Source: Thermoplasmatales archaeon
GTDB taxonomy: Archaea > Thermoplasmatota > E2 > DHVEG-1
Assembly (NCBI GenBank): GCA_020350825.1
Contig: CP070724.1
Location: 89,860 to 153,859 of the forward strand
Direction of reading: 5' to 3'
Length of the DNA: 64,000 nucleotides
In this document: positions 18,787 to 64,000 of the stretch, piece after piece
Numbering within the stretch: the first letter of the stretch is position 1
Layout of the letters: every line of letters begins with the position of its first letter
Notes under the pieces: generated by a model
Seen by the model: only the letters and a program-made list of their open reading frames with translations
Told to the model about the DNA's origin: nothing
Database searches by the model: none
Made by a program: the position numbers and the translations under genes

Positions 18787-18788
18787 AA

Positions 18789-19883: not shown

Positions 19884-19885
19884 TT

Positions 19886-20329
19886 TTATTCTTTTTTTCC
19901 CCACAATCCATAAGGTGGTATCATTTGGAATCGTAAATTGAGTATATTGTCTTCATCAATTTTTACATAGGTTTTACTGAAAATTCCACCCTTAGAATCT
20001 AATGGGAGGGTGTAAATATGTAATTTTTTACCTTTATAGAATAGTGGTTTTGGTTTTTCACTTTCAATTCTTTTCCTTTTAACAATGAAATGATGTAGGA
20101 TAAATATTATATCAAGAACAACAAACACACCTAAAATAATTATACTTGATATTATCCATTGATCCATTGTTAGAAACGCCAATTTGTAGATTCCAAGAAA
20201 ATAAACACTCATTATAAGTATGGTAATCCAAAGAGCATATATCACAGCCAGTATTAGAATTATTTTAGATGTTTTTAGATATCTGACTTTCAGAATATCT
20301 TCATCCATATTCATTTCTACTGCAGACAT
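19886..20329 (-). CDS. Hypothetical membrane protein (3 TM plus a short soluble tail)
   Basis: Hydrophobic segments only. No family recognised. Confidence 0.45.
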   Translation of the reverse strand: MSAVEMNMDEDILKVRYLKTSKIILILAVIYALWITILIMSVYFLGIYKLAFLTMDQWIISSIIILGVFVVLDIIFILHHFIVKRKRIESEKPKPLFYKGKKLHIYTLPLDSKGGIFSKTYVKIDEDNILNLRFQMIPPYGLWGKKE

Positions 20330-20493
20330 ATCCTTTCCTGTATGTTATATTATTGATGTACGTTTTTAAAACTTTCTATTTTTATATGCTTTGATATTTT
20401 ATATTATTTTTGTTAAATAGAATTATAAAAAGTAACAATGAAGTTAGACTAGGGTGTCTAACTGTAATTTGTATTTATTTCTCTCTAATATCT

Positions 20494-21047
20494 TTATTTT
20501 TCTTTTAAAAATTTTATGAATTCTTCCAATGCCTTCCCTCGATGAGAAAATGTGTTCTTTTCTTCAGTACTCATCTCAGCAAATGTTTTTGTTACAACGT
20601 TAGGAATAAATATTGGATCGTAGCCAAACCCCCCCTCCCCTCTTTCTTTATTGGCTATCGTCCCAATGCATTCTCCAATAAAAAACAAAGGCTTTTTATT
20701 GGATTCAGAATAAGCATATACAGATTTGAAAATTGCAGTTCTCCTCTTTTTATCTTCCAAAAGTTTGAGAATGCCTTTGCAACCAATTGTAAAAAATACA
20801 TATTTAGAATACACTCCAGGAAAACCTTCCAACGCATCCACAAAAAGACCAGCATCCTCAATTATAAAAGGATGAGGGAATCTTTTTTTTATGTGGTCCA
20901 CACCATATCCGGCCACTTCTTTGAGAGAAACTCCCTGTACCTCAGGGTATCCAAGATTTTTTTGGACTACTGTGATATCTAAATTTTTCAACTTTTCTTT
21001 TACCTCAAAGAATTTTCCTTTATTCCCAGTAATAAAATAGATTGTTT

Positions 21048-21051
<4 letters not shown>
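20494..21051 (-). CDS. Non-canonical purine NTP pyrophosphatase (HAM1/RdgB/ITPase)
   Basis: ITGNKGKFFEV, FGYDPIF and SHRGKAL motifs. 4-nt overlap with bud32. Confidence 0.9.
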
Positions 21052-22698
<1,647 letters not shown>

Positions 22699-23268
22699 TT
22701 AGTCAGAATCATATCTATTAAAAAATATTTTTTTCTTGTTGTTTTTATTTATTTTGGATGCTCTCTTACTAGGATAACCAATTGGAATTATAACAACAGG
22801 TTCAAAATTAAAAGGTATTTCGATCAAATCATGCAAAAAATCCATTTCTCCAGGGGTATAAGTAAGCGTTGCAAGTTTTTCATTTTCTGCAGCAAGAACA
22901 ATATACGCTATTGAAAGCCACGTAGATTCCAACCAATAGGGTTTATTGGTTTCACCTGCAACAACAACCAAATACGGTGCATCGACAAGAAAATTCTTCT
23001 CTAAGGAGATTTGTTTTTCTAACATCCACTTTTTAAACCATCCTTCAGAATTTGCGAATAACCTTTTATCAATCTCTTCGCAACGATCCTTAATTTTCTC
23101 TTTTAAAACAGGGTCATCAATAATAATGTAAACATACGGCTTCTTATCTGCACCAGATGGAGCCAACAAACCTGCATTAAGTACTAACTCTATTGTTTTC
23201 CTTGGGAACTTTTTATCAGAAAAATGTCGTATACTTCTACGGTTTTTCATCAATGTATATAGATTCAT
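22699..23268 (-). CDS. Nitroreductase-family flavoprotein
   Basis: RRSIRHFSDKKFP N-terminal signature, ~190 aa. Confidence 0.75.
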   Translation of the reverse strand: MNLYTLMKNRRSIRHFSDKKFPRKTIELVLNAGLLAPSGADKKPYVYIIIDDPVLKEKIKDRCEEIDKRLFANSEGWFKKWMLEKQISLEKNFLVDAPYLVVVAGETNKPYWLESTWLSIAYIVLAAENEKLATLTYTPGEMDFLHDLIEIPFNFEPVVIIPIGYPSKRASKINKNNKKKIFFNRYDSD

Positions 23269-23274
23269 GGTTCT

Positions 23275-26200: not shown

Positions 26201-26406
26201 AGAACAAGATCTTTCATTACTCTTGTGAGAACATGACCAGGATGGGGAAGTCCATTTGCAGTTGGAGGTCCTTCTAAAAAAATATAAGGTTTACAATCCT
26301 TTCTTTGCTCAATGGATTTTTTGAATATTTCATTTTCTTGCCAGAACTTTTGAATTTTTTCTTCTACTTCTTTTGGGACATATTTTTGAGGCGGAGATTT
26401 AATCAT
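23275..26406 (-). CDS. ileS: Isoleucyl-tRNA synthetase (archaeal/eukaryotic type)
   Basis: PPTANGLPHPGHVLT (HIGH), GWDTHGLPVE, KMSKSKKNYVDP, and Zn-finger CPKCKS insertions. Confidence 0.95.
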   Translation of the reverse strand: MIKSPPQKYVPKEVEEKIQKFWQENEIFKKSIEQRKDCKPYIFLEGPPTANGLPHPGHVLTRVMKDLVLRYQAMNGHYIRRKAGWDTHGLPVEIEVEKQLGLEDKQAIENYGISKFNKECKKSTLKYERAWVDMTNRIAFWVDMDDPYITFKNEYIESVWWSLKQAWKNKLLYKGHKVVPYCPRCGTVLSAHEIAQGYKTVEEPSIFVKFKLKNEDSYFLAWTTTPWTLISNVALAVNPNETYIKILYKGQNLILAEARAAALLKGQEYDLLDGFSGRELEKIEYEPLFPYAKPDKKAWYVICADFVTMEEGTGIVHIAPAFGEDDYNIGREYDLPVVQLVKLDGTFPDEVTLWKGKFVKDADPSIIEYLEERKLLEGTRDYTHEYPFCWRCDSPLLYYAMESWFISMSKVQDSLIKNNNQIYWYPEHLQQGRFGDFIREVKDWALSRDRYWGTPLPIWICDNKECKSTICVGSIQELKDLSESFPADFDLHKPFVDELIIKCPKCKSKMTREKEVIDCWYDSGSSFFAQWHYPFENKEKFRANFPVDFISEALDQTRGWFYSLLAISTFLFDKNPYKTVLTLGLVLDKDNQKMSKSKKNYVDPNIILDHEGADALRWYLISANAPWMSTRFYEEAVKDTLGKFILTFWNSYNFFTTYAYLDKFDPKKDMIPVSKRGFLDKWVLSRFNRMIGEIHAFIKTFEIHKAARAIESFVVDDFSNWYLRRSRKRLWIEEKTEDKLSGYSSMYDIFLDLSKLLAPFIPFITEETYQNLRTDKMPVSIHLCDYLTPDEKALDDMLEKGMEQIRELVEVGRALRSKIGIKVRYPLNDATIICSSEIENSIKDLLGLLKEELNVKSISFARDPSQFMIKSVKPIYSHLGPKYKEKAKGIIDALELLDKEEVYAKLLKNNEVKINIDNETIKLTDEDFEIVKNEKDHVARADAENATLFLDTILTPELEAEGFAREIIRRIQSMRKELDLDVEDRISTEIDVGIKKKVALQKWEDYIKVETRSKIVSFVEKPKGNLVKKWKIDELDAEIGIRK

Positions 26407-26599
26407 TGTATTTTCACCGAATTAGAATACAATCTTATAGAATCTACACATAATGACACAACACCATTAAAACCATTTCCATCAATTCAACAGATTACAT
26501 CGTCTTAAATAAACAATTTGTTTTTCCTTGATGATTTTATATGTTTTTATAGTTATATTATGCTATAAAATTAAATAAAGGAAAAAGAGAGTTGGTATG

Positions 26600-45939: not shown

Positions 45940-46311
45940 GCTGGGTGTAGGTGGACGGTTGACAGCGATTTATATCGCTGAGGAAAGTCCTCTCTCACTC
46001 TGAATCAGGATACCGTGCAAGCGGTTAAGGCGGGAGTCTTAGCAGAGGCGCAGAAACGACACAGCTCTTGGAATATGCTATGATTCATTTGATGATGAGT
46101 TCTCCTTGGGATTTGGTGAAACGGCCAATCTGCTCCTGGAGCAAGCCCAAATATCGGGATCAGTTATTCAGACTGCTCGAAGGTGGGGCGCATAGACGAA
46201 TACCGTTAGAACAGAAAGAGGCTCTCGTCGGGTCAGCAGACTGCTGCTTGGCTTGACAATGGGGTCACCTCTGATGTTGTAACAGAAAGAGGCTTACTAC
46301 CTTCACCCAGC
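45940..46311 (+). ncRNA. rnpB: RNase P RNA, archaeal type A
   Basis: P1 helix GCTGGGTG (45940-45947) pairs perfectly with CACCCAGC (46304-46311). P3 hairpin CAGCGATTTATATCGCTG, then CR-I GAGGAAAGTCC. CR-V ACAGAAAGAGGCTTAC near the 3-prime end supplies the other P4 strand. G+C much higher than the surroundings. Confidence 0.9.
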
Positions 46312-49840: not shown

Positions 49841-52174
49841 TTAGAAGAACTTCCACACAGTCATCTCCGAAGTAGCATTGTTACCGATATTGTCGTAAGC
49901 AACAGCTTTAATTCTATATCTTAAAGGAATCAATGCCCTCCACCTGTAACTATAGGGTTCAGTGAAATCTTCATCTTTAAGTTTATTATTAATATAGAAC
50001 TCTACTTTTTCAATCCCCTCATCAGATATAGCCTCCACCGTAATATCAATATACCCTACTATTATTGTATTTCTAGGCAAAGAAAAGAGTGGTTTATTTC
50101 GGAAGTAGAATCTTCTCTCTATAGGTTTAATTATAGATACATCTAAATCTGCAGGAATTGTGGTAAAACACCAGACCGAACCCTCAGTTGACGCACCATA
50201 GTGATCCCAAGCAACAATCTGCCAATAATACATCATATTACCTAATAATTCACCAGGGTCATAACTTGTATCTGACTGATTACTCGTAACCTGTGGAGGA
50301 GAACTACTAGTTCCAAAATACACATCATACGTAACTGGATCACCATCAGGATCACCACTAGTCCACCTTAACTTAATATTATTACTTACATTAGTCGCAC
50401 CATCTTCAGGGGTAGGCTCATAAGGCTTATGTGGTGGTTTATTTCCAATTCTGACAATGTTTCTCTTAGTGTCATTTTCAGAGTTGTTGCTATGCACACG
50501 TAAAGTTACTAGGTAATATCCTGCTTCCTCGAATGTATGGTTAGTATATGGACTTGTAAAGTTTACATCAAATTCTTCATCGTTGTCCCAGTCCCATTCA
50601 TAAAGAGTAATATATCCATCATAATCATAACTATCTGAAGCATTGAAAAGAATTAGCTCTCCTGGATCTGGAGGTATTGGTGTCCAGTTGAATTCAGCAA
50701 TTGGAGGAAAATCTCTATCCCACACCTCCATTAAAGGATAATTATCTTCGGCATTAATTAATGTATATGGTGTGTCGCCAATACCATCGCTACCTGGTAT
50801 ATTCTGATTAGGGCCTGAAAAATTATCCACCCCTGTATAATCAGACCAAAAGTTACCACCAGAGGGATACCCATCATCCCAATAATTAAATAAATCCCCA
50901 TTAGAAGCCTGCCCATTTTCATCTCCGTTATAAATGAAATTATTATGAAAAACCCTGTTGAGATTTCCACCACATAAACATGCTTCTAAAGCAACGCCTC
51001 GTTCAACATTTGACATGATATTATTTGAGAATATATGATTTTTCGAAGACATAATCATAAAAATCCCAATATTATTGCTACAGATATTGTTCTCCCAAAT
51101 CATGTTTAAAAATCCCCCACCGTCATGTGAAAAATAAATACCAAATCCTGAATTATCGTTTATCGTATTATTTTGTATAACGTTATAACCACCACCCCCA
51201 AAGCAATCTTCCTCCCCAAACCTCACACCATAATGGTTTTCAGTAATAACACATTGATTAATAATACTGTCTAACACACCATTGAACAATATTCCGACAT
51301 TGTTGTTCGAGATGGTGCTATCCGTGAGAAGACAATTATGAGTATTCCATAACTCGATACCAACATCCGTGTTAGATATTTCTTGGTTCTGTATGGTAAT
51401 ATTACTGCAGTTTATGAGTATTACTTGCCCTTCGTCAACATCTATGATAGTATCTGATTTATTTTCTAAACAGACAAGAGGTTTATCATTGACTGTATTG
51501 TTTATAACAGTATTTTGATATGAATAATAGATCTTAAGACCATCGTTGAAAAAAGAATTGTTTAAAACAAAGTTGTTGCTGGAATAACCAAGGACTAGGC
51601 CATACATAACATTTGAAGTAATGGTATTGCCCGTGATTCTGTTACCGTTAGAAGAAGTTAGCCATATACCATTCCATTTATTCGAGCTGATATTATTATC
51701 CTTTATGGTATTGTTATTACTATTACTAGGCCAATCACCTATATCTATACCAACCCAATTATTCAAGATGTTGTTGTCTGCAATCGTGGTAAAATCAGAT
51801 TTTATATCAATTCCTAACCTATAATTGCCACTGTTTCTAATTGTAAAACTACTGATGTTCACCCAATCAGCAGTAATATAAACAACATCTCCAGTATTGC
51901 TACCATCAATAATTGTGGTATTCCTATCTTCTCCAATAAGACTTATCGATTTGTTGATTATAATGGACTCATAATACGTGCCACTTGGAATATATATCGT
52001 ATCACCAGATGATGCATTATCTATCAAATCCTGAATATAACCATTAGAATTAAGAGACGGAAAAGATGTCTTCTCTACAATAATAGTTCCAGTTGAAGGA
52101 ATAACACTCGCACTAACGAATAAGAGTATAACGGCAACTACTACTCCTTCCTTGATGAGGTTATTTCTTTCCAT
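49841..52174 (-). CDS. Large secreted protein: right-handed parallel beta-helix (NosD/PbH1-like) plus PKD plus Fn3-like plus Ig-like domains
   Basis: Signal anchor, about 15 repeats of the N.I..N..GI.L type, PKD-like FNASDSYDYDGYITLYEWDWDND..YLVTLRV, then the module DPDGDPVTYDVYFGT..YYWQIVAWD. Confidence 0.8.
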   Translation of the reverse strand: MERNNLIKEGVVVAVILLFVSASVIPSTGTIIVEKTSFPSLNSNGYIQDLIDNASSGDTIYIPSGTYYESIIINKSISLIGEDRNTTIIDGSNTGDVVYITADWVNISSFTIRNSGNYRLGIDIKSDFTTIADNNILNNWVGIDIGDWPSNSNNNTIKDNNISSNKWNGIWLTSSNGNRITGNTITSNVMYGLVLGYSSNNFVLNNSFFNDGLKIYYSYQNTVINNTVNDKPLVCLENKSDTIIDVDEGQVILINCSNITIQNQEISNTDVGIELWNTHNCLLTDSTISNNNVGILFNGVLDSIINQCVITENHYGVRFGEEDCFGGGGYNVIQNNTINDNSGFGIYFSHDGGGFLNMIWENNICSNNIGIFMIMSSKNHIFSNNIMSNVERGVALEACLCGGNLNRVFHNNFIYNGDENGQASNGDLFNYWDDGYPSGGNFWSDYTGVDNFSGPNQNIPGSDGIGDTPYTLINAEDNYPLMEVWDRDFPPIAEFNWTPIPPDPGELILFNASDSYDYDGYITLYEWDWDNDEEFDVNFTSPYTNHTFEEAGYYLVTLRVHSNNSENDTKRNIVRIGNKPPHKPYEPTPEDGATNVSNNIKLRWTSGDPDGDPVTYDVYFGTSSSPPQVTSNQSDTSYDPGELLGNMMYYWQIVAWDHYGASTEGSVWCFTTIPADLDVSIIKPIERRFYFRNKPLFSLPRNTIIVGYIDITVEAISDEGIEKVEFYINNKLKDEDFTEPYSYRWRALIPLRYRIKAVAYDNIGNNATSEMTVWKFF

Positions 52175-53310: not shown

Positions 53311-54555
53311 ATGAAGAATAAATTAAATGCATTTTTGTTAGTGTTATGTCTATGTTTTGTTAGTGTTGGGATGGCAGGTGCGTATGACTATACTTATATC
53401 TCTGATGAGAAGAATCATTTTCCTAGAATGGTAGATTCTAGTAATGATTACGGTATTCAGTGGGAGAAGAGTTATGGTTCTAATCCATGGAATGATGCTA
53501 GGTATGAGGGTCCCCAACCTATTGGGGATTGTGATAATGATGGTGACAATGAATTACTCATTGGAGGGCGAGATGCCGTTTTGAGAGTTATGGAATGGAA
53601 TGAAGAGAAGCAAACATATGAAGAAACTCATTTGTTGCATTGCCCTTTTTACCCAGTTCGACGACTTGATGCTGATGGTTTTGCGATTGGTGATTTAACA
53701 GGTGATGGGAAAAATGAGATTGCTGTTTCTTGGTACGTTACCGTTCATAAATGGATTAGAGGAAAATATAGAATTATTGGGTGGAATCCTTGGATAGAAT
53801 GGAGTGGTGGTGGTAGTCCAGATTGTTATATCGGGGATTGCGATAATGATGGAAAGAATGAAATAGTTATGAGCTGTCGGGATTGGTCAAGGTCTATTCC
53901 TGAAATTGTTGTCTTTAAATGGAATGGATGGCGAATTGTAAAAGTTGCAGAGTGGGATGATCCTGGCATAAATGGGGAAGTTTTCATGGCAGGAATGGGA
54001 GATACTGATGAAGATGGAGAAAACGAAATCGTCCTTGGTTCTGGTGATAAAGTTGTTGTTCTTAATTGGAATAAGGAGAGTAAGGAGTTTGAGCCAACTA
54101 TTGTAAGTGATGATCCAGCTTCAGGTTGGGAAAATCATCCGTTTGCCTGTATCGTCAAAGATAGTGATATGGATGGAAAAAATGAGATTAATGTTGGATA
54201 CTGGGCCCCCAAGATCAAGATTTTCGAATGGAACGGCACCGGATACGAGATTAAATTTGAAAAAGAATGGCCTGGTGAAGAAGGATTAATTGAAGCCCTA
54301 GATGTTGGTGATGTTGATGATGATGGCATTGCAGAGGTATGTGCAGGAACAGATGTGATACATATATTGCAATGGAATAATTCCACATATGTTGAAGAGG
54401 CAGTTATTGATGAAACATTTGGATTATTGGCTGTTGTCTGTGTTGGGGATTGTGATAACGACGGGAAAAATGAAATTCATGCTGGATCGGTTGGAGTATA
54501 TCCTGGTCAAGATTTTATGTCTTGGGTTTTCAAGTACGGATGGGAATCTAAGTAA
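53311..54555 (+). CDS. Secreted FG-GAP/VCBS-type seven-bladed beta-propeller protein
   Basis: Signal peptide LLVLCLCFVSVGMAGA. Seven repeats of the Ca-binding loop GDCDNDGDNE / GDLTGDGKNE / GDCDNDGKNE / GDTDEDGENE / KDSDMDGKNE / GDVDDDGIAE / GDCDNDGKNE. Confidence 0.8.
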   Translation: MKNKLNAFLLVLCLCFVSVGMAGAYDYTYISDEKNHFPRMVDSSNDYGIQWEKSYGSNPWNDARYEGPQPIGDCDNDGDNELLIGGRDAVLRVMEWNEEKQTYEETHLLHCPFYPVRRLDADGFAIGDLTGDGKNEIAVSWYVTVHKWIRGKYRIIGWNPWIEWSGGGSPDCYIGDCDNDGKNEIVMSCRDWSRSIPEIVVFKWNGWRIVKVAEWDDPGINGEVFMAGMGDTDEDGENEIVLGSGDKVVVLNWNKESKEFEPTIVSDDPASGWENHPFACIVKDSDMDGKNEINVGYWAPKIKIFEWNGTGYEIKFEKEWPGEEGLIEALDVGDVDDDGIAEVCAGTDVIHILQWNNSTYVEEAVIDETFGLLAVVCVGDCDNDGKNEIHAGSVGVYPGQDFMSWVFKYGWESK

Positions 54556-54676: not shown

Positions 54677-54952
54677 TTGAGAAATACGCCTAAAACTGTT
54701 GTTAAAAAGGATGGAAGAAAAGAACCTTTCGTAAAAGAAAAAATTGTGGTTAGTGCTGTAAAAACTGGTGCTCCGGTAAAGGTGGCACGTAGTATTGCTG
54801 ATAAGATTGAGAAACACCCCAAAGATGAGCTTAAAACCAGTGAGATCAAAAAAAGCGTCTTGGATGAACTAACATTACATAATCCTGATTTACCTAAACG
54901 CTGGCTCAGTTACGATAAAAGTGTTAAAAGGTTGTATAAACATATGTATTAA
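54677..54952 (+). CDS. Stand-alone ATP-cone domain protein
   Basis: VVKKDGRKEPFVKEKIVVSAVKTG..ARSIADKIE..LKTSEIKKSVLDEL fits the ATP-cone pattern. TTG start uncertain. Confidence 0.55.
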   Translation: MRNTPKTVVKKDGRKEPFVKEKIVVSAVKTGAPVKVARSIADKIEKHPKDELKTSEIKKSVLDELTLHNPDLPKRWLSYDKSVKRLYKHMY

Positions 54953-54976: not shown

Positions 54977-56458
54977 TTATGATTTGAGGCGTTTTATACG
55001 GTTGCCCATAGCGTCATAGGTAGCATATTTATAGAGTTCGCCAAGGGTGGGATAATTAAAACAGGTGTCAATAAAAAGATTGCTGCTTGCGTCTATTATA
55101 AGGGCACTGACACCAATGTGGATTAATTCGGATGCGATCTCGCCGATGACATGGACACCTAGTAGTTTCATGGGGCGACTGAGGTCTTTATTGAATTTGA
55201 AGATTAATTTCAAAAAACCATCGGAGTCACCGATAATCATACCTCGTGCATTCTGGTTATAGGCAGCTTTGCCCACCGCATAATCAATCTTTTCCTCCCG
55301 ACATTCTTCCTCGGTTTTGCCAGCCATAGAGCACTCAGGGATTGTGTAAATACCAATGGGCAAAATGGGTGCCACATGCTTCTTGTAGGGTTCTAAGTTA
55401 AAGGCTTTGATCATGGCGAAGCGAGCCTGTTCCATGGAAGTCGAGGCTAGAGCAGGTCTGCCAATGACATCACCAGCAGCATAGATACCTGACACAGGTT
55501 TTTTTGTCTCTGGATGTATAACCTGGTAGTTTTGATCTACCGCTAATAAACCGTGTTTGCCAGGTGTGATCCCAGCGACCTCGAGATTCAATTCCCTAGT
55601 GTTGCTAGTTCGTCCTGTCGCGAGCATTACCGCCTCGTACTTGCTGACTTTTCCCGAACCCAGTTTTATTTGTAGCCCGTTAGCCATCACAGTACAAGCC
55701 TCTACGCTATCGGGCTTCAGCAGTTTAATTCCCATCTTTGACATGCTGTTCTCGAGTGCAAATGATATATCGCGATCAAGAAAAGGTAGCAGGATCTCCT
55801 TGTTGTGAATTAAGGACACATCAACACCCAATGCAGCGAAGGTGCAGGCATATTCACAGCCGATGACACCACCACCCACTACTACCATATTCTTTGGCAC
55901 TGGACTTTTGATCTGCAAGATAGAATCCGAGTCGTAGATACGTGGATCTTTAGGGATGTTGTCGGGACGCCGTGGATTCGAACCCGTTGCAATCAAGATA
56001 ATATCGCCCTTAAGGAACTTAGGTGGTTTGTCGCGTGCCTCGATCTTGATTGTTCGTTTATCCACAAACGAGCCCATACCCTTGAAGATGTCCACGTTAT
56101 GGACAAGCATGTTATTCATGACACGTGTACGCTCAGCATTTTTCACTACTCGCTCGTGGTGTAGAAAGTCCCTAGCTGTGGCCTGACGTTTGAGCGAAAG
56201 ATCCACGCCGTGGAGACGACGTGCACGTATCCCTGAGAGTGTTAGCGACGTTTCTCGTAGGGTTTTGCTTGGGATCGTAGTACCAGCTGCTGCACCGCCT
56301 AAATAGGGGTCTCGTTCCACCATGGCGACATTTTTACCGAAATAGGCAGCCTGTGCAGCGCCTTTCTCACCTGCAGGGCCTGATCCAAGAACGATCAGAT
56401 CATATTTGAGTAAGGATCCTCTCTTAGCTATACATACTCCCCCTAAATAATAATCTTC
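54977..56458 (-). CDS. SthA/UdhA-like soluble pyridine nucleotide transhydrogenase (FAD/NAD(P) disulfide-reductase fold without the redox Cys pair)
   Basis: YDLIVLGSGPAGEKGAAQAAYFGKNVAMVERDPYLGGAAAGTTIPSKTLRE (no CxxxxC), second Rossmann VVVGGGVIGCEYA, C-terminal dimerisation domain. The coordinates span the whole open frame; the first canonical start (ATG at 56323) would delete the GxGxxG motif (see findings). Confidence 0.75.
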   Translation of the reverse strand, partial: EDYYLGGVCIAKRGSLLKYDLIVLGSGPAGEKGAAQAAYFGKNVAMVERDPYLGGAAAGTTIPSKTLRETSLTLSGIRARRLHGVDLSLKRQATARDFLHHERVVKNAERTRVMNNMLVHNVDIFKGMGSFVDKRTIKIEARDKPPKFLKGDIILIATGSNPRRPDNIPKDPRIYDSDSILQIKSPVPKNMVVVGGGVIGCEYACTFAALGVDVSLIHNKEILLPFLDRDISFALENSMSKMGIKLLKPDSVEACTVMANGLQIKLGSGKVSKYEAVMLATGRTSNTRELNLEVAGITPGKHGLLAVDQNYQVIHPETKKPVSGIYAAGDVIGRPALASTSMEQARFAMIKAFNLEPYKKHVAPILPIGIYTIPECSMAGKTEEECREEKIDYAVGKAAYNQNARGMIIGDSDGFLKLIFKFNKDLSRPMKLLGVHVIGEIASELIHIGVSALIIDASSNLFIDTCFNYPTLGELYKYATYDAMGNRIKRLKS

Positions 56459-57216
56459 TCACCCTCAGAGGCGATGCTGATATTAAGTTTTAATTCGTGG
56501 GATACTTCCTTCACTTCTTTCTTGATTTCTTTTTCCAGTTTCGGGCTTAAATGAAATAAGATTACCTGTGGAAAACATCCTTTGACTCGATGAAAATCTA
56601 TCAACTCTTTTTTTAACATTTTGGGACATAGGTGTGCTGAATTGATTGCTCTATTTTCTAATCTATTGGGAAAAGTTACTTCCACTATAATAAGCTGAGG
56701 TGATATGTGTTCCCAAAGAGCTGAAAGACCTGGACCAGTATCACCAGAGTAAAACACCTTCTTTCCATCTTTGGAAGTGATTTCAAAGCCTAATGCGTTA
56801 ATGGTATGTCTTACCGGCAGGGGTAAAACCTGATAACCTTCAATATCTACTGGAACAAAGGGTTCTAAAGCAACAAACTTGAGTGATGGTTTTTCTAAGA
56901 AAAAGGGAATCTTTTTTGTGAATTTAGGATAAATTACACCATCAACAAGATGAGAGGAAAGGATTTTAAGTGTCTGTGGAGCAGCAAAAATCTCAGTAGT
57001 ATGATTAGGATTATTGAAGGCAAAAGCTGGAATCCCTCTAATATGGTCGTAATGTCCATGAGATAGCAAGATTGCCTTTATCTTTTCTTGCTCTGAAAAT
57101 GAAAGTTCCGAAGCTAGGCTCCCTGCATCCACAGCTAAGATATCATCAATCAGAATGGAGATCAACCTAGTATCTCTTGATTCTGCATTATGTGCACCTA
57201 AAAACTTTACGATCAG
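56443..57216 (-). CDS. MBL-fold hydrolase resembling class II 3',5'-cyclic-nucleotide phosphodiesterases
   Basis: VKFLGAHNAESRDTRLISILIDDILAVDAGS, SHGHYDH (HxHxDH), YSGDTGP, AHLCPKMLKKEL, LFHLSPK. The coordinates span the whole open frame; the track start is a TTG at 57165. Confidence 0.6.
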   Translation of the reverse strand: MIVKFLGAHNAESRDTRLISILIDDILAVDAGSLASELSFSEQEKIKAILLSHGHYDHIRGIPAFAFNNPNHTTEIFAAPQTLKILSSHLVDGVIYPKFTKKIPFFLEKPSLKFVALEPFVPVDIEGYQVLPLPVRHTINALGFEITSKDGKKVFYSGDTGPGLSALWEHISPQLIIVEVTFPNRLENRAINSAHLCPKMLKKELIDFHRVKGCFPQVILFHLSPKLEKEIKKEVKEVSHELKLNISIASEGEKIII

Positions 57217-57327
57217 TTAATCAACTCCAATATATTGTATGGCAACGTGGTTTTCTTAAAAACCTTTATGTTTATAAATCCTGCTTTTGACTATCTATAG
57301 TGATAGTAATCAATCTGTTATTTGGGC

Positions 57328-58905
57328 TTAGATGCGGCGAAGTTTTCTAGAGAGCCCCTTTGCCATGTTTTGCATCACTATCTTGCCAAGATGACTATTT
57401 TTGTTCATCAGATTTTCTAGTTCAAACCGATCTATCACAACGAGCTTAGAACCTACATCTGTTACTAAATCAGCGACTCTAGGCAAATCCTCAATGATTG
57501 CCATCTCGCCAAAAATCTCTCCTTGACTAATAGAGCCAATTTTAGATCTTTTTTTTCCAGTTCTCTTAGCAAAAACTGATGCTTTACCTTCTGCAAGAAC
57601 AAAAATTTCGCTCCCACATTCACCTTCACTGCATATAGTTTTTCCTGCAGGGTAGGAAACCATTTTACATATTTGAGCCAGTTGGGATAACTCCCCATCG
57701 GAAAGACCCTGGAAAATGTCGGATTGTCGTGTTACTTCGGTGATTTCTAGACCAATTTTCTTACATTCCAAGTCCTTCATTGCCAGCTTAAACATATCTT
57801 TGGCCATTGATGTAAGCTTTATGTCTCTCACATCTGGAGGTATAAGCAACTTGGCCATACGTACCACATCAAGTCGTTCCACTCCTCGGAATACCATTGA
57901 GGGGCAATAGGCCACTGGAACAAATCCTAATCTATCTAAGGTCTTTTGCATTTGAGAAGAATATGCGCTTACATCCATTTCAATATACTGAGCCTCATAA
58001 TTCTCTGGGGCCAGCTTTACCAGTGTTGATAACAAGAACCCTTTCACTTCATCGTCGAACTCAATAAGTTCGAGCACCTTAACCTTCTTATCAATAACGT
58101 CCACGGTGAAGCCGATCGCGCCCAAGATTACGCCCTTATCTTTGGCTACCAAATAGTGAGCTTGATTCGTAGCGATTTTAAAGAATCCATAACTCAAACT
58201 CAGATTCCCAAATACCTCAGGATTCTTGATCCGTCCTCGTTCAATTCGGAGAAGAGGTGAAACTCCAGCTGATTGGAGTTCCATAATATCAAAAGTCTTC
58301 TCTGTGGGATAACCATCTACTTCATCTTCAACTATAAGATCCACTGGTAAGCCAAGATTTTGCATGCTTTTAGCTGCCATTGGGTAGATACAAGCAATAA
58401 CTCGAGGATTATTCCTTCTCAGGGAGAGAGCAGGTTCAAAGAGTCTGGTGACAAAAACCACGTTCTCTCTGGCTGTCGCAAGTTGATACTTATTTGGTTC
58501 AAATCCTGTTGGAAAAAATCCACACCGTTCAGAGATCTTTTGGGCCCCTGAATGAACAGCCCTACACTCAGCAAAACCAAATTGGATAATTTCTGAGGAA
58601 GCATCTATTAAACCATTGAAGATCTCAGTGCCGGTACCTTTTCGACCGCATTTTGGATCTACTACCAAACGTCCAAACTCACCTATTAAATCTGAGAATC
58701 CGCCCGCCGTAAGAAAAACTGAGCCCGTACCAACAATTCGGTTTTTCTCCTTAGCAACTAAAATTATGTTATCATCAGAATAGATACTTTTAGTAAGCCA
58801 CATGGGATCGTAAAATTTCTTGAATGGATAATCTGGACCATAGGTTTTTACAAAAAGATTCATAATTAGTTGCGCATCATTTTCGTCTGCTTGTGTAATT
58901 TCCAC
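57328..58905 (-). CDS. Tandem GNAT acetyltransferase with a C-terminal cyclic-nucleotide-binding (CAP-type) domain
   Basis: GNAT motif A RLVVDPKCGRKGTGTEIF in the first domain and a degenerate second GNAT-like domain. C-terminal FQGLSDGELSQL..GEIFGEMAIIEDLPRVADLV (FGE..PR.A phosphate-binding cassette). GTG start. Confidence 0.8.
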   Translation of the reverse strand: MEITQADENDAQLIMNLFVKTYGPDYPFKKFYDPMWLTKSIYSDDNIILVAKEKNRIVGTGSVFLTAGGFSDLIGEFGRLVVDPKCGRKGTGTEIFNGLIDASSEIIQFGFAECRAVHSGAQKISERCGFFPTGFEPNKYQLATARENVVFVTRLFEPALSLRRNNPRVIACIYPMAAKSMQNLGLPVDLIVEDEVDGYPTEKTFDIMELQSAGVSPLLRIERGRIKNPEVFGNLSLSYGFFKIATNQAHYLVAKDKGVILGAIGFTVDVIDKKVKVLELIEFDDEVKGFLLSTLVKLAPENYEAQYIEMDVSAYSSQMQKTLDRLGFVPVAYCPSMVFRGVERLDVVRMAKLLIPPDVRDIKLTSMAKDMFKLAMKDLECKKIGLEITEVTRQSDIFQGLSDGELSQLAQICKMVSYPAGKTICSEGECGSEIFVLAEGKASVFAKRTGKKRSKIGSISQGEIFGEMAIIEDLPRVADLVTDVGSKLVVIDRFELENLMNKNSHLGKIVMQNMAKGLSRKLRRI

Positions 58906-59135
58906 GATGTGGCCTCCCTTTTCACTAACTAGAAACTTATATAATCCAAAAATAATTACCTCTTTTATAACTTTCTCTATTTTAATGGATAAAATGTTCT
59001 TAAAATCATATTTTCTCTACGATACATCAATATTTAATCCGTTTTTACTTATATAGGGACTAAAATCTATATGTTTTAAATAGGTAAACTGAAGATTCTG
59101 TTTCTGTGTGTAAATAAAGAAATATGGAGAAAGAT

Positions 59136-59426
59136 TTATTCTAGATACTCTAAATCCACAAGTAATTCAAGTTTCCTTGGGGGAGCTTCAAGTCCTCTTT
59201 TTGAAAAAAACGTGATAGGTTCTTCTCTAATCTTTTTGGTAAATTTAAGAAATGATTTAAACTCCTTAAATTTCAATAGAGCAGCATAGTTCCATTCACT
59301 TGACGGTTTTAATATATCCATCAGCTCCACATTATCAAATTTTTTTGATGCTTGCATCATAGTTTTTTTTGCTTCCTCAAACTCTTCTTTGCTACCACTA
59401 AAATTAAAATAGACTATTGCGTACAT
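59136..59426 (-). CDS. Hypothetical protein (96 aa)
   Basis: ORF only, in an AT-rich spacer within the cAMP block. Confidence 0.35.
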   Translation of the reverse strand: MYAIVYFNFSGSKEEFEEAKKTMMQASKKFDNVELMDILKPSSEWNYAALLKFKEFKSFLKFTKKIREEPITFFSKRGLEAPPRKLELLVDLEYLE

Positions 59427-59684
59427 TTTATCGTTTTTGCATCTTTTTTACATATAAAAATATTTCCTTATTAGAAGCATGTTGTTTTATTCCGGAATTA
59501 TTCTTTTCGAGAAAATTAAGTAACCGATTTATTATACATAAAGAAGTTGAATCAGAAGGAAATCTAACAAGACTAGTCGATCTGAATATCATCCAAGAAC
59601 TAGATCAAGACATTCAAAGAAAGAGCTAATACTTCCTCCCCAAATCTTTTTATATAAAAATATAATTGTACGGAAGGGGATATT

Positions 59685-60566
59685 TTGGCAAAAAAAATTG
59701 ACAATAAGGAAATCAAGTCCAATAAAAAGGTAAAATCCAAAAGAAAAATATTTCTCCTGATAATCCCCGTAATAATTATTGTTTGTATCATAGGATTTAT
59801 ATGGTTCACACTTACCACTGATGTAGTCAATGCCCAACTTATTGTTGAATCTGGGACTGTCCAGGTAAAACACGTAGGAGGATCATGGATCTCTGCCGAA
59901 AATAGCATGCTTCTCTCCCAGTCTGATTCAGTGAAGACAGGAGATAATACATCTGCGTCAATAATCCTTTTTGAAAGCAGCATAATCAGGCTTGACAACA
60001 ACACAGAGGTGACGATTCAAGAACTCATCCAACTGGATGAAGAAACCAGTGTTAAGATAAAACAGGATGCAGGACGGACATGGAACACAATTTCCAAGAT
60101 GAGTGGTATAGACAACTACGATGTCCAGACTCCAACAACAGTTGCCAGTGTTCGTGGAACCGCTTTTGTTGTAATTGTCCAATCAAATGGGACAACCTAT
60201 TATGGAGTGGCCCATGGAATCCTAAATGTTTCTTATGTGAGCAATGGTACAATTCAAGGCGTTGTAGATTTGGATGAGAATGAATCTGTAATAGCTTATG
60301 TTGATATGGTGAATATATCTCTTGAAATAAAACCTTTTGTTATGGATGATTGGGTCTTAGAAAATCTTCTTGAAGATGAGCAGTTTAGAATTGATTTAAA
60401 GGAGGAACTTTACAGTCGAATTGAACCATATATACCTGAATTAAAAGAGCAGTATGGTTTAACTGACCAAGAATTAGAGGTTCTTATCGATGGTTACATT
60501 ATGGGATACTTCGACCTTCCACCTGATACACCAGAATGGGCAAGAGAATTATTTGAATTGTCTTGA
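59685..60566 (+). CDS. FecR-domain protein with an N-terminal membrane anchor
   Basis: TM helix IFLLIIPVIIIVCIIGFIWF. GTVQVKHVGGSW..GDNTSASIILFESSIIRLDNNTEV..VASVRGTAFVV fits the FecR fold pattern. TTG start. Confidence 0.7.
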   Translation: MAKKIDNKEIKSNKKVKSKRKIFLLIIPVIIIVCIIGFIWFTLTTDVVNAQLIVESGTVQVKHVGGSWISAENSMLLSQSDSVKTGDNTSASIILFESSIIRLDNNTEVTIQELIQLDEETSVKIKQDAGRTWNTISKMSGIDNYDVQTPTTVASVRGTAFVVIVQSNGTTYYGVAHGILNVSYVSNGTIQGVVDLDENESVIAYVDMVNISLEIKPFVMDDWVLENLLEDEQFRIDLKEELYSRIEPYIPELKEQYGLTDQELEVLIDGYIMGYFDLPPDTPEWARELFELS

Positions 60567-60580
60567 GCCTGTGGTTTATA

Positions 60581-62533
60581 ATGCCTACTATACTCAAAAA
60601 CAAACTCACAAAAACACTATTTATCTCACTATTTATCTCAGCCATAGTGACAATGCTTATGACTGCAGGTTTCTTAGATACATGGGAATCCAAGATCTCG
60701 GATGCTTTTTATGCTCCGGGTAATACACTTGATGAGATCATAATAGTAGCAATAGATGACGAGAGCCTCCAGGAACTTGGTAGGTGGCCCTGGCCTAGGG
60801 ACCACTTTGCTAGGGCTATAAATTATCTAAACCAGAGCTCAGTAATTGGAATAGATATCTCTTTTTTTGAGCCCGCAGAAGGAGATTCTGAATTAGCCGA
60901 TTCTTTCAAGGCAGTTAATGTCGTCTTGGCCATGGAATATACATCCTTCTCCTATAAAAATGGGGAGCTGTATGGGGAGAGCTTGCTTAAACCAACCACA
61001 ACTCTGGGCACCTTAGGTGTGGATTTTGAGACAGGCTTTGTTAACCTTTACACAGACTCAGATGGTGTGACGAGATCTTTTAATCCTCATATATCCGGTA
61101 TCGAAGACTACGACCACATCTCTATGGTTGTTGTTGGTGAATACCTTGGAATCACTCCCGACCTTGGAAGCTCCAGAATGCTGATAAACTTCTTTGCTCC
61201 CCCAGGAGAATATGAGTACATATCATTTTCTGACGTCTACAACAATATTATAGACCCTTCATACTTCAAGGGCAAAATTGTTCTTATTGGTGCCACTGCT
61301 GCAGATCTCCATGACGATGTTATAACTCCTATATCCAACCAAGCTATGCCTGGTGTTGAGGTAAATGCCAATCTTGTACAGTCTATACTCACGAGGGACT
61401 TCCTATATTATCAGGACGATTTTTCTGCTATAGGAGTTATATTCCTTTTTGCCCTGCTCGCAGGCTTTTTACTATTCAGATTTAGGATACATATAGCTAC
61501 TGTCCTTTTGGCAGTGCTTGCTATAGCCTACATCTTCTTTTCCATCTATACTTTTGATTCAGGAATCATCATGAATATACTCTACCCGCTACTTTCCCTA
61601 ACGTTGGTCTACATCACTCTTGTTGTGATATACTATCTGACAGAGGAAAGGAGTAGGAAGTGGATAACTTCGATCTTTGGAAAGTATGTTTCACCTGTGG
61701 TAATAGACAACCTTATAAAAAATCCTGATTGGATAAAACTGGGAGGGGAGAAGAGGACTATAACCGTTTTCTTCTCTGACATAAGAGGATTTACCTCTAT
61801 ATCAGAGAGACTTGATCCTGAGGAGCTAGTCCATCTCCTAAACGAGTACTTAACCGAGATGACCTCGATAATAATAAAGGATCAGGGGCTTGTTGACAAG
61901 TATATGGGTGACGCTATCATGGCCTTTTGGGGAGCACCTCTAGAGCAGCCCAATCACACAGAGTTAGCATGCTCAAGTAGTCTGGAGATGATAGATAAGC
62001 TCGAAGAGCTCAAGAAGAAATGGAAAAAAGAGGGAATACCATCTTTTGATATTGGAATAGGTCTAAACAGTGGTGATGCTATTGTGGGCAACATGGGCTC
62101 CTTAAAAAGGTTTGACTACACTGCAATTGGTGACAATGTCAACCTTGCCTCCCGGATGGAAGGCCTTAATAAGATCTATGGTACTAATATAATAATAACC
62201 GAAAATACCCACAAGGTTGTCAAAGATAAATTCGAGACTAGAAAGCTTGATGCTGTTAAAGTATTGGGGAAGAAGAAACCAATCCTAATCTATGAACTCC
62301 TCTCACAAAAGGACAGATTCAGCAAAAAGCAGGGAGATTTTGTCAGGCTCTATGAGGCTGGCCTTGAACTTTATTTTAAGAAGAATTGGAAGCCAGCTAT
62401 CAAATCCTTCCAGGATGCTGTTAAGCTCATGGAGGATAATGCCTCCCATATATTTATAGCACGCTGTCAGGAATTCTTAAAGAATCCGCCCTCTAGAGAT
62501 TGGGATGGCGTATGGGAGATGGAAACCAAATAA
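60581..62533 (+). CDS. CHASE2 sensor domain-containing class III adenylate cyclase
   Basis: CHASE2 signature IIIVAIDDESLQELGRWPWPRDHFARAINYL, three TM helices, then cyclase core ITVFFSDIRGFTSISE, VDKYMGDAIMAFWGAP and DYTAIGDNVNLASRMEG. The track start (TTG at 60563) overlaps the FecR stop by 4 nt; the ATG at 60581 is the alternative. Confidence 0.9.
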   Translation: MPTILKNKLTKTLFISLFISAIVTMLMTAGFLDTWESKISDAFYAPGNTLDEIIIVAIDDESLQELGRWPWPRDHFARAINYLNQSSVIGIDISFFEPAEGDSELADSFKAVNVVLAMEYTSFSYKNGELYGESLLKPTTTLGTLGVDFETGFVNLYTDSDGVTRSFNPHISGIEDYDHISMVVVGEYLGITPDLGSSRMLINFFAPPGEYEYISFSDVYNNIIDPSYFKGKIVLIGATAADLHDDVITPISNQAMPGVEVNANLVQSILTRDFLYYQDDFSAIGVIFLFALLAGFLLFRFRIHIATVLLAVLAIAYIFFSIYTFDSGIIMNILYPLLSLTLVYITLVVIYYLTEERSRKWITSIFGKYVSPVVIDNLIKNPDWIKLGGEKRTITVFFSDIRGFTSISERLDPEELVHLLNEYLTEMTSIIIKDQGLVDKYMGDAIMAFWGAPLEQPNHTELACSSSLEMIDKLEELKKKWKKEGIPSFDIGIGLNSGDAIVGNMGSLKRFDYTAIGDNVNLASRMEGLNKIYGTNIIITENTHKVVKDKFETRKLDAVKVLGKKKPILIYELLSQKDRFSKKQGDFVRLYEAGLELYFKKNWKPAIKSFQDAVKLMEDNASHIFIARCQEFLKNPPSRDWDGVWEMETK

Positions 62534-62555
62534 TACTGCAATCATCAAAGGATAT

Positions 62556-64000
62556 TTATCTTCTCTTTTTTCTAAGGATGACCAATATTAGTACTATCAT
62601 TGCTAATAAAGATATAGCCTCAAATCCAGGTGTCTTCTCCTCCTCATATATCTTCAGCCATTTCTGGATAACAAAATCAACATAAGGTGATAACTCTGTT
62701 ATTAGATTATATGCATAATCCCACTTGCCATCTCCATCACTATCTATAAGATAAGTATTGTTTTCCCTTCCAACGATTGTCTGATTCCCTGTTGCATCAT
62801 TATAAAATACATCCCAAGTATTGTTACTGTTAAGATCAATTAGTTCTCCTATGATTATATCATCGATTGGATGTACATCTATTAAAACTGTATAAGTTGT
62901 TATCCCCGAAATAGCATTGTTTATATCCTCTGCATATACAGTTATAAGGTATTCATTATAGGTTGACCAACTATGGTTTTGAGTAGTTGTAGTACCATTT
63001 GTTAAGTATTCTGTGGTTGTATTGGTGTCGTCACCCCAGTCAAAAACGTACCTAATAGTATCGTTATCTAAATCTGTTGAAACTACATCATAATCAAGTG
63101 ATGTTTGTTTATGTCCAAATGTTGGACCATCCAATGTTGGTTGTGTAGGCGGATTGTTTGGTATGGTAATATATACTGTGGCTGTATCAGTATGTGTACT
63201 TCCTTCGTTATCATATACCCTTAGCGTAACTGTATATTCCCCTATTGCTTCATAGGTATGGTTTGGATTTACCCCCAAATCTTCATGCCATGTATCTTCA
63301 TTGAAAAACTTCCAATCATACCGGACAATAGACTCACCATTTTCATCGTTATCTGTACTATTTGTTCCATCGAACTCGATTTCTTCATCTACAAATCCAT
63401 AGTATGGTCCACCAGCATCAGCAGTTGGATCATTTTGTGATGACGACGGGGGTGGTAGACTTTTAGATGAAAAACTCCATACAGGACTTTCATTAGATGC
63501 ACTATGATTATCCCATGCTATAATCTTCCAGTAATAGATTCTTCCGAGATCTAATGTTCCAGGATCATAAGTGTTATTTGATTGATTACTGGAGACTTTT
63601 GGTGGAGATGAATCAGTTCCAAAGTAAACATCGTAGGTGAGAGTGTCACCTGGATCCAGATCGCTGCAATTCCAACTAAGGTCAGTATTGACCGCTATTT
63701 CTGAGGCGCCATTATCTGGTACAGGATTACTAGGGGAATTTGGAGGATCATTCACATCACCCACCGTTATACTAACCGTAGCAACATTAGACGTAGCACC
63801 ATCATCATCATCCACCTCATAAGTAAAACTATCAGAGCCAAAATAATTCAAATCAGGCGTATAAGTAACCACACCAGTTGTCGCATTCACACTCGTAACA
63901 CCATCAGACACACCACTAACAATAACAACAGACGTAGGATCAACCGAACCATCAACATCATAATCATTCGCCGTGACATCGATATCAACCGCTGTATCCT
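62556..64000 (-). CDS. PGF-CTERM-anchored surface protein with cadherin/VCBS-like, Fn3-like and PKD domains (5-prime end outside the window)
   Basis: C-terminus TPGFEAISLLAMIVLILVILRKKRR is a PGF-CTERM-type sorting signal. The frame stays open from 63911 to the window edge (..DIDVTANDYDVDGSVDPTSVVIVSGVSDGV..). PKD-like YDWKFFNEDTWH..YTVTLRVYDNEG. Confidence 0.8.
   Translation of the reverse strand, partial: DTAVDIDVTANDYDVDGSVDPTSVVIVSGVSDGVTSVNATTGVVTYTPDLNYFGSDSFTYEVDDDDGATSNVATVSITVGDVNDPPNSPSNPVPDNGASEIAVNTDLSWNCSDLDPGDTLTYDVYFGTDSSPPKVSSNQSNNTYDPGTLDLGRIYYWKIIAWDNHSASNESPVWSFSSKSLPPPSSSQNDPTADAGGPYYGFVDEEIEFDGTNSTDNDENGESIVRYDWKFFNEDTWHEDLGVNPNHTYEAIGEYTVTLRVYDNEGSTHTDTATVYITIPNNPPTQPTLDGPTFGHKQTSLDYDVVSTDLDNDTIRYVFDWGDDTNTTTEYLTNGTTTTQNHSWSTYNEYLITVYAEDINNAISGITTYTVLIDVHPIDDIIIGELIDLNSNNTWDVFYNDATGNQTIVGRENNTYLIDSDGDGKWDYAYNLITELSPYVDFVIQKWLKIYEEEKTPGFEAISLLAMIVLILVILRKKRR

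Follow-up and report, generated by a model that had tools for sequence, protein, structure and literature searches.

We analyzed a 64,000-nt stretch of the chromosome of a Thermoplasmatales archaeon (hereafter, the window; GenBank assembly GCA_020350825.1, contig CP070724.1), and all coordinates given below without a locus name are positions in this stretch. The interval 54977-62533 carries six genes in two divergent groups, as seen from the listing of open reading frames (ORFs) and from Pfam and NCBIfam profile searches. We interpret these genes as a chromosomal cyclic AMP (cAMP) signaling module of a Thermoplasmatota lineage, a reading to which we assign a probability of about 0.55. It builds on the observed domain content of the encoded proteins, their intact catalytic and ligand-binding residues, the conserved linkage of the genes and the archaeal host.

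In the proposed pathway, a CHASE2 receptor cyclase would sense an outside signal, probably modulated by a co-transcribed FecR-like membrane protein, and its cytoplasmic class IIIb domain would convert ATP to 3',5'-cAMP. The nucleotide would bind the C-terminal CAP-type domain of an effector protein and allosterically switch its N-terminal acetyltransferase, by analogy with the mycobacterial enzymes MtPat and MsPat, the likely substrates being lysine residues in enzymes of metabolism, for example acyl-CoA synthetases. A neighboring 257-aa binuclear phosphodiesterase of the metallo-β-lactamase (MBL) fold would hydrolyze cAMP and thereby reset the signal. The two remaining genes, encoding a SthA-type transhydrogenase and a 96-aa protein, would be conserved passengers, possibly providing a redox output, a target or an adaptor. 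The cluster comprises the following features (GNAT, GCN5-related N-acetyltransferase; cNMP, cyclic nucleoside monophosphate):

59685-60566, + strand: FecR-like membrane protein (Pfam FecR, 38.8 bits)
60563-62533, + strand: CHASE2 class III cyclase, 656 aa (CHASE2, 171.6 bits; Guanylate_cyc, 97.4 bits)
59427-59684, no strand: intergenic region separating the divergent 96-aa and FecR-like genes, with a promoter-like box
59136-59426, - strand: 96-aa orphan protein, conserved, no family match
57328-58905, - strand: GNAT/GNAT-like/cNMP-binding effector, 525 aa (Acetyltransf_1, 35.1 bits; cNMP_binding, 60.2 bits)
56443-57216, - strand: predicted MBL-fold phosphodiesterase, 257 aa (Lactamase_B_2, 63 bits, in the ORF span 56443-57165)
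54977-56431, - strand: SthA-type transhydrogenase, 484 aa (NF003585, 474.9 bits)

An earlier note on this DNA, made from the sequence alone, had described the interval as a cAMP signaling cassette in an archaeal backbone. All domains that it named were recovered in their places by Pfam profile search, and the motifs quoted in it or in its support (FFSDIRGFT, DKYMGDAIM, DYTAIGDNVNLASRME and FGEMAIIEDLPRVA) were found. The genes that it named are present, including the FecR-like gene, but it had overlooked SthA and the 96-aa gene, as well as the fact that the FecR-like gene forms one unit with the cyclase gene.

The chromosome carrying the cluster is genuinely archaeal, because the window contains an archaeal RNase P RNA (45943-46308, + strand; Rfam RF00373, 158.9 bits) and a set of Top6B/A, Ham1, Bud32, Kae1 and IleRS genes in an order shared with its relatives, and because an NCBI protein with 100% identity to its cyclase is encoded on a 2.32 Mb contig labeled Thermoplasmatales archaeon. 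The archaeal backbone recognized earlier from the RNase P RNA and the Top6B/A, Kae1 and Bud32 genes was confirmed by this synteny.

Receptor cyclase and candidate cyclic-nucleotide-gated acetyltransferase

The cyclase exceeds the Pfam cut-offs for both of its domains (21.9 for Guanylate_cyc, PF00211, and 26.3 for CHASE2). Its polypeptide consists of an N-terminal transmembrane segment (aa 14-39), an extracytoplasmic CHASE2 domain (aa 27-299, nt 60641-61459), three further transmembrane segments (aa 285-361), a catalytic domain (aa 395-585, nt 61745-62317) and a C-terminal tail of about 70 aa. By its hydrophobic segments, the protein has a receptor topology, with CHASE2 placed between the N-terminal segment and the three-segment block. 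The ORF listing starts the gene mechanically at a TTG, and the NCBI annotation of the identical protein uses the ATG at 60581.

The catalytic domain aligns to solved bacterial adenylyl cyclases with 124-144 bits (Pseudomonas aeruginosa CyaB, 3R5G, 136 bits; also 2W01), and the alignment with CyaB spans the motifs FFSDIRGFT, DKxxGD and DYTxIGxxVNLASRxE. The metal-binding aspartates are D406, in FFSDIRGFT, and D450, which lies together with the substrate-binding lysine K446 in DKYMGDAIM, whereas DYTAIGDNVNLASRME holds T520 at the Asp/Thr position and the transition-state residues N527 and R531. These six residues are kept in 120/120 orthologs, and the phosphate-binding lysine K570 in 118 of the 120; the matches listed in the searches with the cyclase, as in those with the MBL protein, are close orthologs. 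CyaB, a class IIIb enzyme, has the same Lys/Thr, metal and transition-state residues, but its sensor module differs from that of the window protein, which has CHASE2 and a FecR-like partner. The earlier note had seen a class III cyclase with both metal-aspartate contexts and had taken a Lys/Thr pair to imply ATP as the substrate; aligned to CyaB, the protein carries the full catalytic set, including the complete Lys/Thr set of adenylyl cyclases. These residues give good support to a cyclase that is active, specific for purines and most likely an adenylyl cyclase, with 3',5'-cAMP formed from ATP as its probable product.

The FecR-like protein has a single N-terminal transmembrane segment (aa 16-50), with the FecR domain outside the cell, and shows a weak DUF7354/MtxA_N match. 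Its gene runs 4 nt into the cyclase ORF as counted from the TTG and ends 14 nt before the ATG used in the NCBI annotation. The reading frame is open from 59658 and the relatives have 313-318 aa; judging by this, the true start may lie slightly upstream of 59685. The gene adjoins the cyclase gene in every archaeal locus that holds both and also in one bacterial locus (L034). Because the two reading frames overlap, the FecR-like protein is likely a co-sensor that belongs to the same operon as the cyclase.

The effector consists of three domains:

58426-58905, - strand: GNAT domain, aa 1-160 (Acetyltransf_1, 35.1 bits against a cut-off of 20.7)
57847-58290, - strand: GNAT-like middle domain, aa ~206-353 (by the strand/helix order of the AlphaFold2 model)
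57337-57723, - strand: CAP-type cNMP domain, aa 395-523 (PF00027, 60.2 bits against a cut-off of 27.5)

The phosphate-binding cassette of the C-terminal domain (G466-E467...R476-x-A478) is invariant in 111/111 family members, which bears out the intact CAP-type domain reported in the earlier note. The C-terminus resembles CRP, PKA and PKG by sequence (phmmer) and CRP, GlxR and PKA by fold (Foldseek, TM-score about 0.5-0.8 on the target). Its ligand is probably cAMP, as suggested by the linked Lys/Thr cyclases.

The AlphaFold2 model of the effector (mean predicted local distance difference test score, pLDDT, 81) has a GNAT-type order of strands and helices in both N-terminal domains. In the first domain (GNAT1), the glycine-rich loop after strand 4 reads GRKGTG (bacterial consensus RAxGAA), and residues G90, E113 and Y140 are conserved. 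Its best solved matches are weak and include the protein acetyltransferases Sulfolobus Pat (3F8K) and RimI; the top 50 Foldseek matches of the model are cNMP-domain matches only, so that the GNAT domains were not placed structurally. The middle domain is the most conserved part, with 71 of 220 columns invariant against 33 of 165 in GNAT1. It scores 18.3 bits with PF18014, below the cut-off of 22.7 (a match is found in 8 of 31 members), aligns weakly to GNAT1 over 25 columns (hhalign, probability 13%) and has no sequence match in PDB. Of the tandem GNAT claimed in the earlier note, the first domain stood by its Acetyltransf_1 score, whereas the second can be called GNAT-like but not proven; a tandem arrangement is plausible from the model. 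The stretch LLRIERGR..FGNLSLSYGFF (aa 213-247), within the middle domain, is the most invariant of the family, yet it is modeled with pLDDT below 50, and it may serve as a mobile element for regulation or substrate docking. We infer that cAMP would activate rather than inhibit the effector and that the acetylated substrates would be proteins rather than small molecules.

A defense role of these genes was considered and rejected. In a Pycsar-like anti-virus system, a cyclic nucleotide would be produced upon infection and a cNMP-domain effector would execute defense; the PADLOC cyclase and effector models do match the cyclase and cNMP domains, and precomputed Pfam matches give the Anti-Pycsar Apyc1 family for the MBL orthologs. 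These matches, however, go no further than generic similarity of domains. The cyclase combines purine-type Lys/Thr residues with the architecture of a CHASE2 membrane receptor, the effector, a GNAT protein, lacks a membrane-disrupting or TIR domain, and the genes keep a stable place in the chromosome next to housekeeping genes throughout the clade, which makes this explanation highly improbable.

Conservation and origin of the cluster

The effector was sought in GTDB species representatives. Its gene was found in 12 archaeal genomes, all labeled Thermoplasmatota, Thermoplasmatales or Thermoplasmata, and in 26 bacterial genomes (Planctomycetota, Myxococcota, Chloroflexota, Hydrogenedentota, Kiritimatiellae, Victivallales, Ignavibacteriaceae, Fimbriimonadaceae and Verrucomicrobiota). 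The few database entries that carry Asgard or Methanobacteriota labels were taken as submitter labels. The gene order cyclase, FecR-like, 96-aa, effector, MBL and SthA recurs in about ten archaeal genomes (loci L001-L004, L006-L011 and L015), with partial copies in L012-L014. The identities of the cluster proteins to those of the window are 50-99%, the FecR-like protein reaching down to 50-60%.

Because this order recurs in independently assembled loci of related archaeal genomes, the chimeric join that the earlier note had listed as an alternative is ruled out, and selection for linkage is indicated. The clustering of a synthesis enzyme with a putative cNMP-gated GNAT effector, as claimed in that note, is not due to chance, the order being kept across the archaeal loci. 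Bacterial contamination or an assembly join would agree with the raised G+C content at third codon positions (GC3) of the block but is hardly credible, since the same genes are found with archaeal flanks in assemblies of different projects, including megabase-scale contigs, synteny extends into the flank on the cyclase side wherever a relative covers it, and the GC3 of the cluster equals that of the flanks in seven relatives.

The gene beside the cyclase in this syntenic flank encodes a PKD protein, and its position is shared by every relative whose locus reaches it. On the opposite side, Top6B borders the SthA gene in L002, L007 and L012; in the window and in L006 it does not. The window genes Top6B-Top6A-Ham1-Bud32-Kae1-IleRS (16852-26421) lie about 35 kb from the cluster (block 54977-63911) and are inverted relative to L002, L007 and L012. 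This arrangement is consistent with one inversion whose breakpoint fell between SthA and Top6B, and mobility of the cassette was judged unnecessary to explain the differing flank.

Gene neighborhoods of other effectors provide three independent associations (in L047/L048, L046 and L004) in support of the proposed module. Basal in the archaeal effector clade are L047 and L048 (72% identity), where the effector gene is followed by a zinc-ribbon gene and then by a gene for a soluble class III cyclase-AAA_16-TPR protein with the same Lys/Thr residue pattern. In L046 (52% identity), which belongs to the sister group, an NDP-forming acyl-CoA synthetase gene follows 7 nt after the effector gene and precedes a gene for an AMP-forming synthetase with a GK lysine motif at its C-terminus. 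A bacterial effector copy, in locus L034, lies 4 kb from a FecR and CHASE2-cyclase pair. The effector family is linked to two unrelated cyclase architectures, which supports a signal passing from cyclase to effector. The neighborhoods concerned, together with two genes of L004, are as follows:

L046, 19-5787: effector neighborhood, apparent operon
L047, 255-5388: effector neighborhood, apparent operon
L004, 7848-9485: AMP-forming acyl-CoA synthetase ending in PKTQSGKIKR, inserted between the effector and MBL genes
L004, 12403-14676: 757-aa pyridoxal-phosphate (PLP)-dependent decarboxylase fused to a cNMP-binding domain, downstream

The neighbors in L004 hint at a wider set of cNMP-controlled enzymes in these archaea. 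They also bear on the nature of the effector substrates. The effector could instead be a cAMP-regulated N-acetyltransferase of small molecules, such as amino acids, polyamines or antibiotic-like compounds, and would then resemble the tandem GNAT enzymes of the Eis or MshD type. The two-domain GNAT layout, the Acetyltransf_9 matches of 16/31 members and the lack of any significant MtPat similarity beyond the cNMP domain are in line with such an enzyme; moreover, the middle domain, highly conserved as it is, could provide a pocket for a small molecule, and the PLP-decarboxylase-cNMP fusion of L004 hints at amine metabolism under cNMP control. We nevertheless regard small-molecule acetylation as unlikely, given that acyl-CoA synthetases, which are classic protein substrates, occur in two independent neighborhoods and that protein acetyltransferases are found among the solved matches of GNAT1, weak as these are.

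The earlier note had suggested, from G+C counts of a few lines, that the block may have been acquired from bacteria. The G+C excess proved real: GC3 in the cluster is 0.30-0.47 (SthA 0.47, cyclase 0.44, effector 0.35) versus 0.258 ± 0.031 in 41 other ORFs of the window. The excess recurs in L006, L010 and L035, and in this sub-lineage the cluster genes reach up to 0.47-0.58 versus 0.26-0.30 in the flanks, whereas the GC3 of the cluster equals that of the flanks in L002, L004, L007, L008, L012, L013 and L015. The excess is a feature of one sub-lineage of the cluster-bearing clade and as such fails as evidence of transfer; recent transfer from bacteria was rejected as its cause, since most relatives show none. 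One idea is that the genes were replaced by a copy from a G+C-richer relative.

A bacterial origin is suggested instead by the effector tree, which was built for this protein only by neighbor-joining, with midpoint rooting and without support values. In this tree, the archaeal effectors form one shallow clade, sister to P0096/P0097 and nested in a much deeper bacterial radiation. Because of this nesting among bacterial homologs, one old transfer of the effector from bacteria is plausible and favored.

MBL-fold enzyme, SthA and proposed transcription units

The MBL protein contains the HxHxDH motif and the downstream ligands of a binuclear site (H53-G-H55-Y-D57-H58, H137, D159, H195 and H222). 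In 76 representatives of its family, H53, H55, H58, H137, D159, H195 and H222 are invariant and D57 is nearly so. The family is large, an exhaustive search giving 2119 representatives at 50% clustering, and its proteins have about 255 aa. The window protein scores 25.4-25.6 with Pfam PDEase_II (PF02112; cut-off 23.7), over model positions 78-175 of 340, and the same model matches 47 of the 76 representatives, with a best E-value of 5e-19.

A profile of the 76 members aligns residues 44-243 to residues 119-352 of yeast PDE1 (4OJV) in one stretch (68.7 bits). Besides the metal ligands, this alignment pairs HLxNxxIxPDF with HVFNDLIWPDLT, and HLTPxxLxxEL (HLxPxxLxxEL) with HLSPIYLINEL. The profile also matches YhfI (63.6 bits) and phage Apyc1 (7T28, 41.8 bits). 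With Bacillus subtilis RNase Z, it aligns in two pieces and skips residues 154-200, which we take to be the tRNA-binding flexible arm; given this break and a score of 54.8 against a cut-off of 293, membership in the RNase Z family was rejected. With NF041851, the family of YhfI/Apyc1-like cyclic nucleotide-degrading phosphodiesterases, the window protein scores 30.7, short of the cut-off of 400. The HxHxDH site and the later His/Asp/His ligands are common to the window enzyme and the class II phosphodiesterases (PF02112; yeast PDE1, 4OJV); it is about 100 aa shorter than PDE1, and in length and layout it is like YhfI and Apyc1 (about 250 aa). By sequence, we class the protein as a compact relative of the class II/YhfI-type cyclic-nucleotide phosphodiesterases, and 3',5'-cAMP is a putative substrate.

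The mechanical ORF listing places the starts of the MBL and SthA genes too far downstream: the true starts are a CTG (57214-57216), 17 codons further upstream, and an ATA (56429-56431), 36 codons further upstream, respectively. With these starts, the MBL protein regains strand 1 of its fold (KFLGAHN), and SthA its FAD-binding motif, GSGPAG. From the ATA, SthA passes the NF003585 cut-off of 465, and from the internal ATG, it scores 426.7, below the cut-off. The CTG and ATA codons are common to the window and L006, its closest relative, the other relatives having GTG, ATG or TTG at the MBL start and ATG at the SthA start. Because two independent assemblies share these codons, they are not sequencing errors, and they may lower the expression of both genes; a Shine-Dalgarno-like site, GAGGTTGAT, is intact ahead of the CTG. 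The SthA gene starts 11 nt after the MBL stop codon, and given this short gap the two genes are probably co-transcribed; they are adjacent or overlapping in the archaeal loci except L012.

The 96-aa gene lies between the FecR-like gene and the effector gene in all archaeal loci covering this interval, with 60-99% identity. Its product is predicted to be cytoplasmic and has the invariant motifs EEPxTFFxKRGL and PPxxLEL, and no match to it was found in Pfam, NCBIfam or PDB. An A/T-rich promoter-like box, AGGAAATATTTTTA...AAAAGATGC, lined up by eye, is located about 20-45 nt upstream of its ATG and is shared by nine relatives, the conserved AAAAGATGC element standing between the box and the gene start. 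By its sequence and position, the box is a candidate archaeal TATA/BRE element (BRE, transcription factor B recognition element). Conserved A/T-rich boxes are present in all relatives on the - strand ahead of three genes (59427-59560 for the 96-aa gene, 58906-59060 for the effector gene and 57217-57290 for the MBL gene), and the FecR-like and cyclase genes, like the MBL and SthA genes, overlap or lie almost end to end. Four transcription units are thereby suggested: FecR-like-cyclase, the 96-aa gene, the effector gene and MBL-SthA. A scan for sigma-70 promoters and terminators gave background-level results, and the sigma-70 model does not apply to archaea.

A number of findings weigh against a complete signaling module. 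The weakest link of the proposed pathway is the MBL enzyme. Its curated scores rank RNase Z (54.8) above PhnP (32) and NF041851 (30.7), all of them far below the curated cut-offs, and with a profile of its archaeal orthologs, the best-scoring solved structure is PhnP, followed by yeast PDE1. Hence, the class II resemblance noted earlier holds in the PDE1 alignment of the broad family profile but not in the strongest curated score or in the best structure match of the archaeal profile. Its AlphaFold2 model, built with 23 close orthologs, is poor (pLDDT 64), so that the Foldseek list (PhnP, YhfI, RNase Z and others) cannot settle the function. Its relatives in the other loci examined have no cAMP-related neighbors, and the tightest partner of its gene is SthA rather than the cyclase. 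As for the effector, the middle domain rather than GNAT1 is the most conserved part, a preference of the cNMP domain for cAMP or cGMP is not readable from sequence, and no conserved effector neighbors occur across the 26 bacterial loci, with a cyclase nearby in one of them. Finally, the cluster is eroded in the metagenome-assembled chromosomes of three relatives. L012 lacks SthA and carries a stop codon in the 96-aa gene and a cyclase gene that breaks off after residue 458; at the L013 locus, both the FecR-like gene and the cyclase gene are absent; and in L035, no more than the C-terminal 197 codons of the effector remain. Thus, the module is dispensable in these relatives.

Several of these observations would be explained if the signaling pair consisted of the cyclase, with its FecR-like partner, and the effector only, while MBL-SthA formed an unrelated operon. 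The MBL protein would then be a general phosphodiesterase acting, for example, on 2',3'-cyclic phosphates, phosphoribosyl cyclic phosphate or RNA 3' ends, and cAMP would be removed by another enzyme or by dilution. In addition to the RNase Z and PhnP matches of the archaeal protein and the unrelated contexts of its relatives, the MBL gene has a promoter-like box of its own, is tightly coupled to SthA by an 11-nt gap or an overlap, and is separated from the effector gene by an inserted gene in L004. Apart from this locus, however, the MBL gene adjoins and follows the effector gene in the archaeal loci, although the flank beyond SthA is rearranged. Furthermore, the alignment to RNase Z breaks at the arm position, whereas PDE1 aligns in one piece that includes the class II motifs, and there are no phn genes nearby. 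With evidence on both sides, we consider such a restricted pair possible, at appreciably less than even odds.

Relation to known systems and flanking genes

The complete cAMP module, as preferred here, combines two arrangements known from bacteria, judging by analogy: a CHASE2 cyclase paired with a FecR-like protein, and a cAMP-gated acetyltransferase. The first has a counterpart in Sinorhizobium meliloti, where the gene for CyaD1 (SMc02176) adjoins those for the FecR-domain protein SMc02177, which is dispensable for signal perception, and the Crp-like regulator Clr. Likewise, in magnetotactic bacteria, mtxA is followed by a gene for a CHASE2 cyclase. Like the window, both loci place a CHASE2 cyclase beside an extracytoplasmic protein of FecR or MtxA type, and the S. 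meliloti locus also encodes a cNMP-binding effector. Unlike in the window, this effector is a Crp-type transcription factor and not an enzyme, and neither a phosphodiesterase nor SthA is encoded there.

The second arrangement is that of the 'type III' bacterial GNATs MtPat (Rv0998) and MsPat (MSMEG_5458), in which, as in the window effector, a CAP/PKA-type cNMP domain is fused to a GNAT domain. Mycobacterial cAMP-activated GNATs acetylate acetyl-CoA synthetase and other targets (PMC8556138), and relatives of the window effector similarly adjoin acyl-CoA synthetase genes, a linkage that echoes the known Pat/Acs relationship (PMC8556138). The proteins differ in that the cNMP domain is C-terminal in the window effector and N-terminal in Pat, and in that the window effector is longer (525 aa versus about 333 aa in MtPat), has an additional conserved GNAT-like middle domain and comes from an archaeal host. 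With the mycobacterial Pat family model (NF058543), it scores 27.9 against a cut-off of 460, in the cNMP region only. By these comparisons, the effector belongs to neither of the two known effector families, and the putative MBL phosphodiesterase appears to fit no curated family.

According to a 2023 review, cAMP has been measured in archaea but its role there is unclear, and no archaeal protein that synthesizes, degrades or binds cAMP has been characterized (PMC10249747). Our literature search found no description of the effector architecture or of any archaeal cAMP pathway, in agreement with the review and with the remark in the earlier note that no archaeal cAMP-to-acetylation pathway had been described. 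The mechanism itself would be unsurprising, and the cluster provides a concrete, testable entry to the open question of archaeal cAMP. It offers expressible soluble domains for all three cAMP steps from an abundant lineage of sediment archaea, and it points to an uncharacterized family of putative cyclic-nucleotide-gated acetyltransferases common to archaea and several bacterial phyla. If the proposed pathway is true, the mycobacterial logic that connects a second messenger to protein acetylation extends to archaea, and a whole signaling module, built around an imported effector gene, has long been kept in an archaeal clade.

A bolder version of the proposal can be put forward only tentatively, and we hold it to be clearly less probable than the general one. 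It can be speculated that the cluster is the first complete dedicated cAMP pathway of archaea, in which the receptor cyclase would signal to a previously unrecognized class of cAMP-gated acetyltransferases controlling acyl-CoA synthetases, the co-inherited SthA would connect it to the NADH/NADPH balance, and the class II-like MBL enzyme would act as the off-switch. The effector residues 213-247 could then be an autoinhibitory or substrate-docking element that is released by cAMP.

Both sides of the cluster are occupied by genes for large secreted or surface proteins (49841-52174, - strand; 53311-54555, + strand; 62556-63911, - strand), which are of the beta-helix/NosD-like type, the FG-GAP repeat type and the PKD/Big_9 type, the last anchored in the membrane by its C-terminus. 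The 3' end of SthA is faced by a convergent gene for a stand-alone 91-aa ATP-cone protein (54677-54952, + strand; Pfam, 38.4 bits), a small nucleotide-sensing domain without an attached enzyme.

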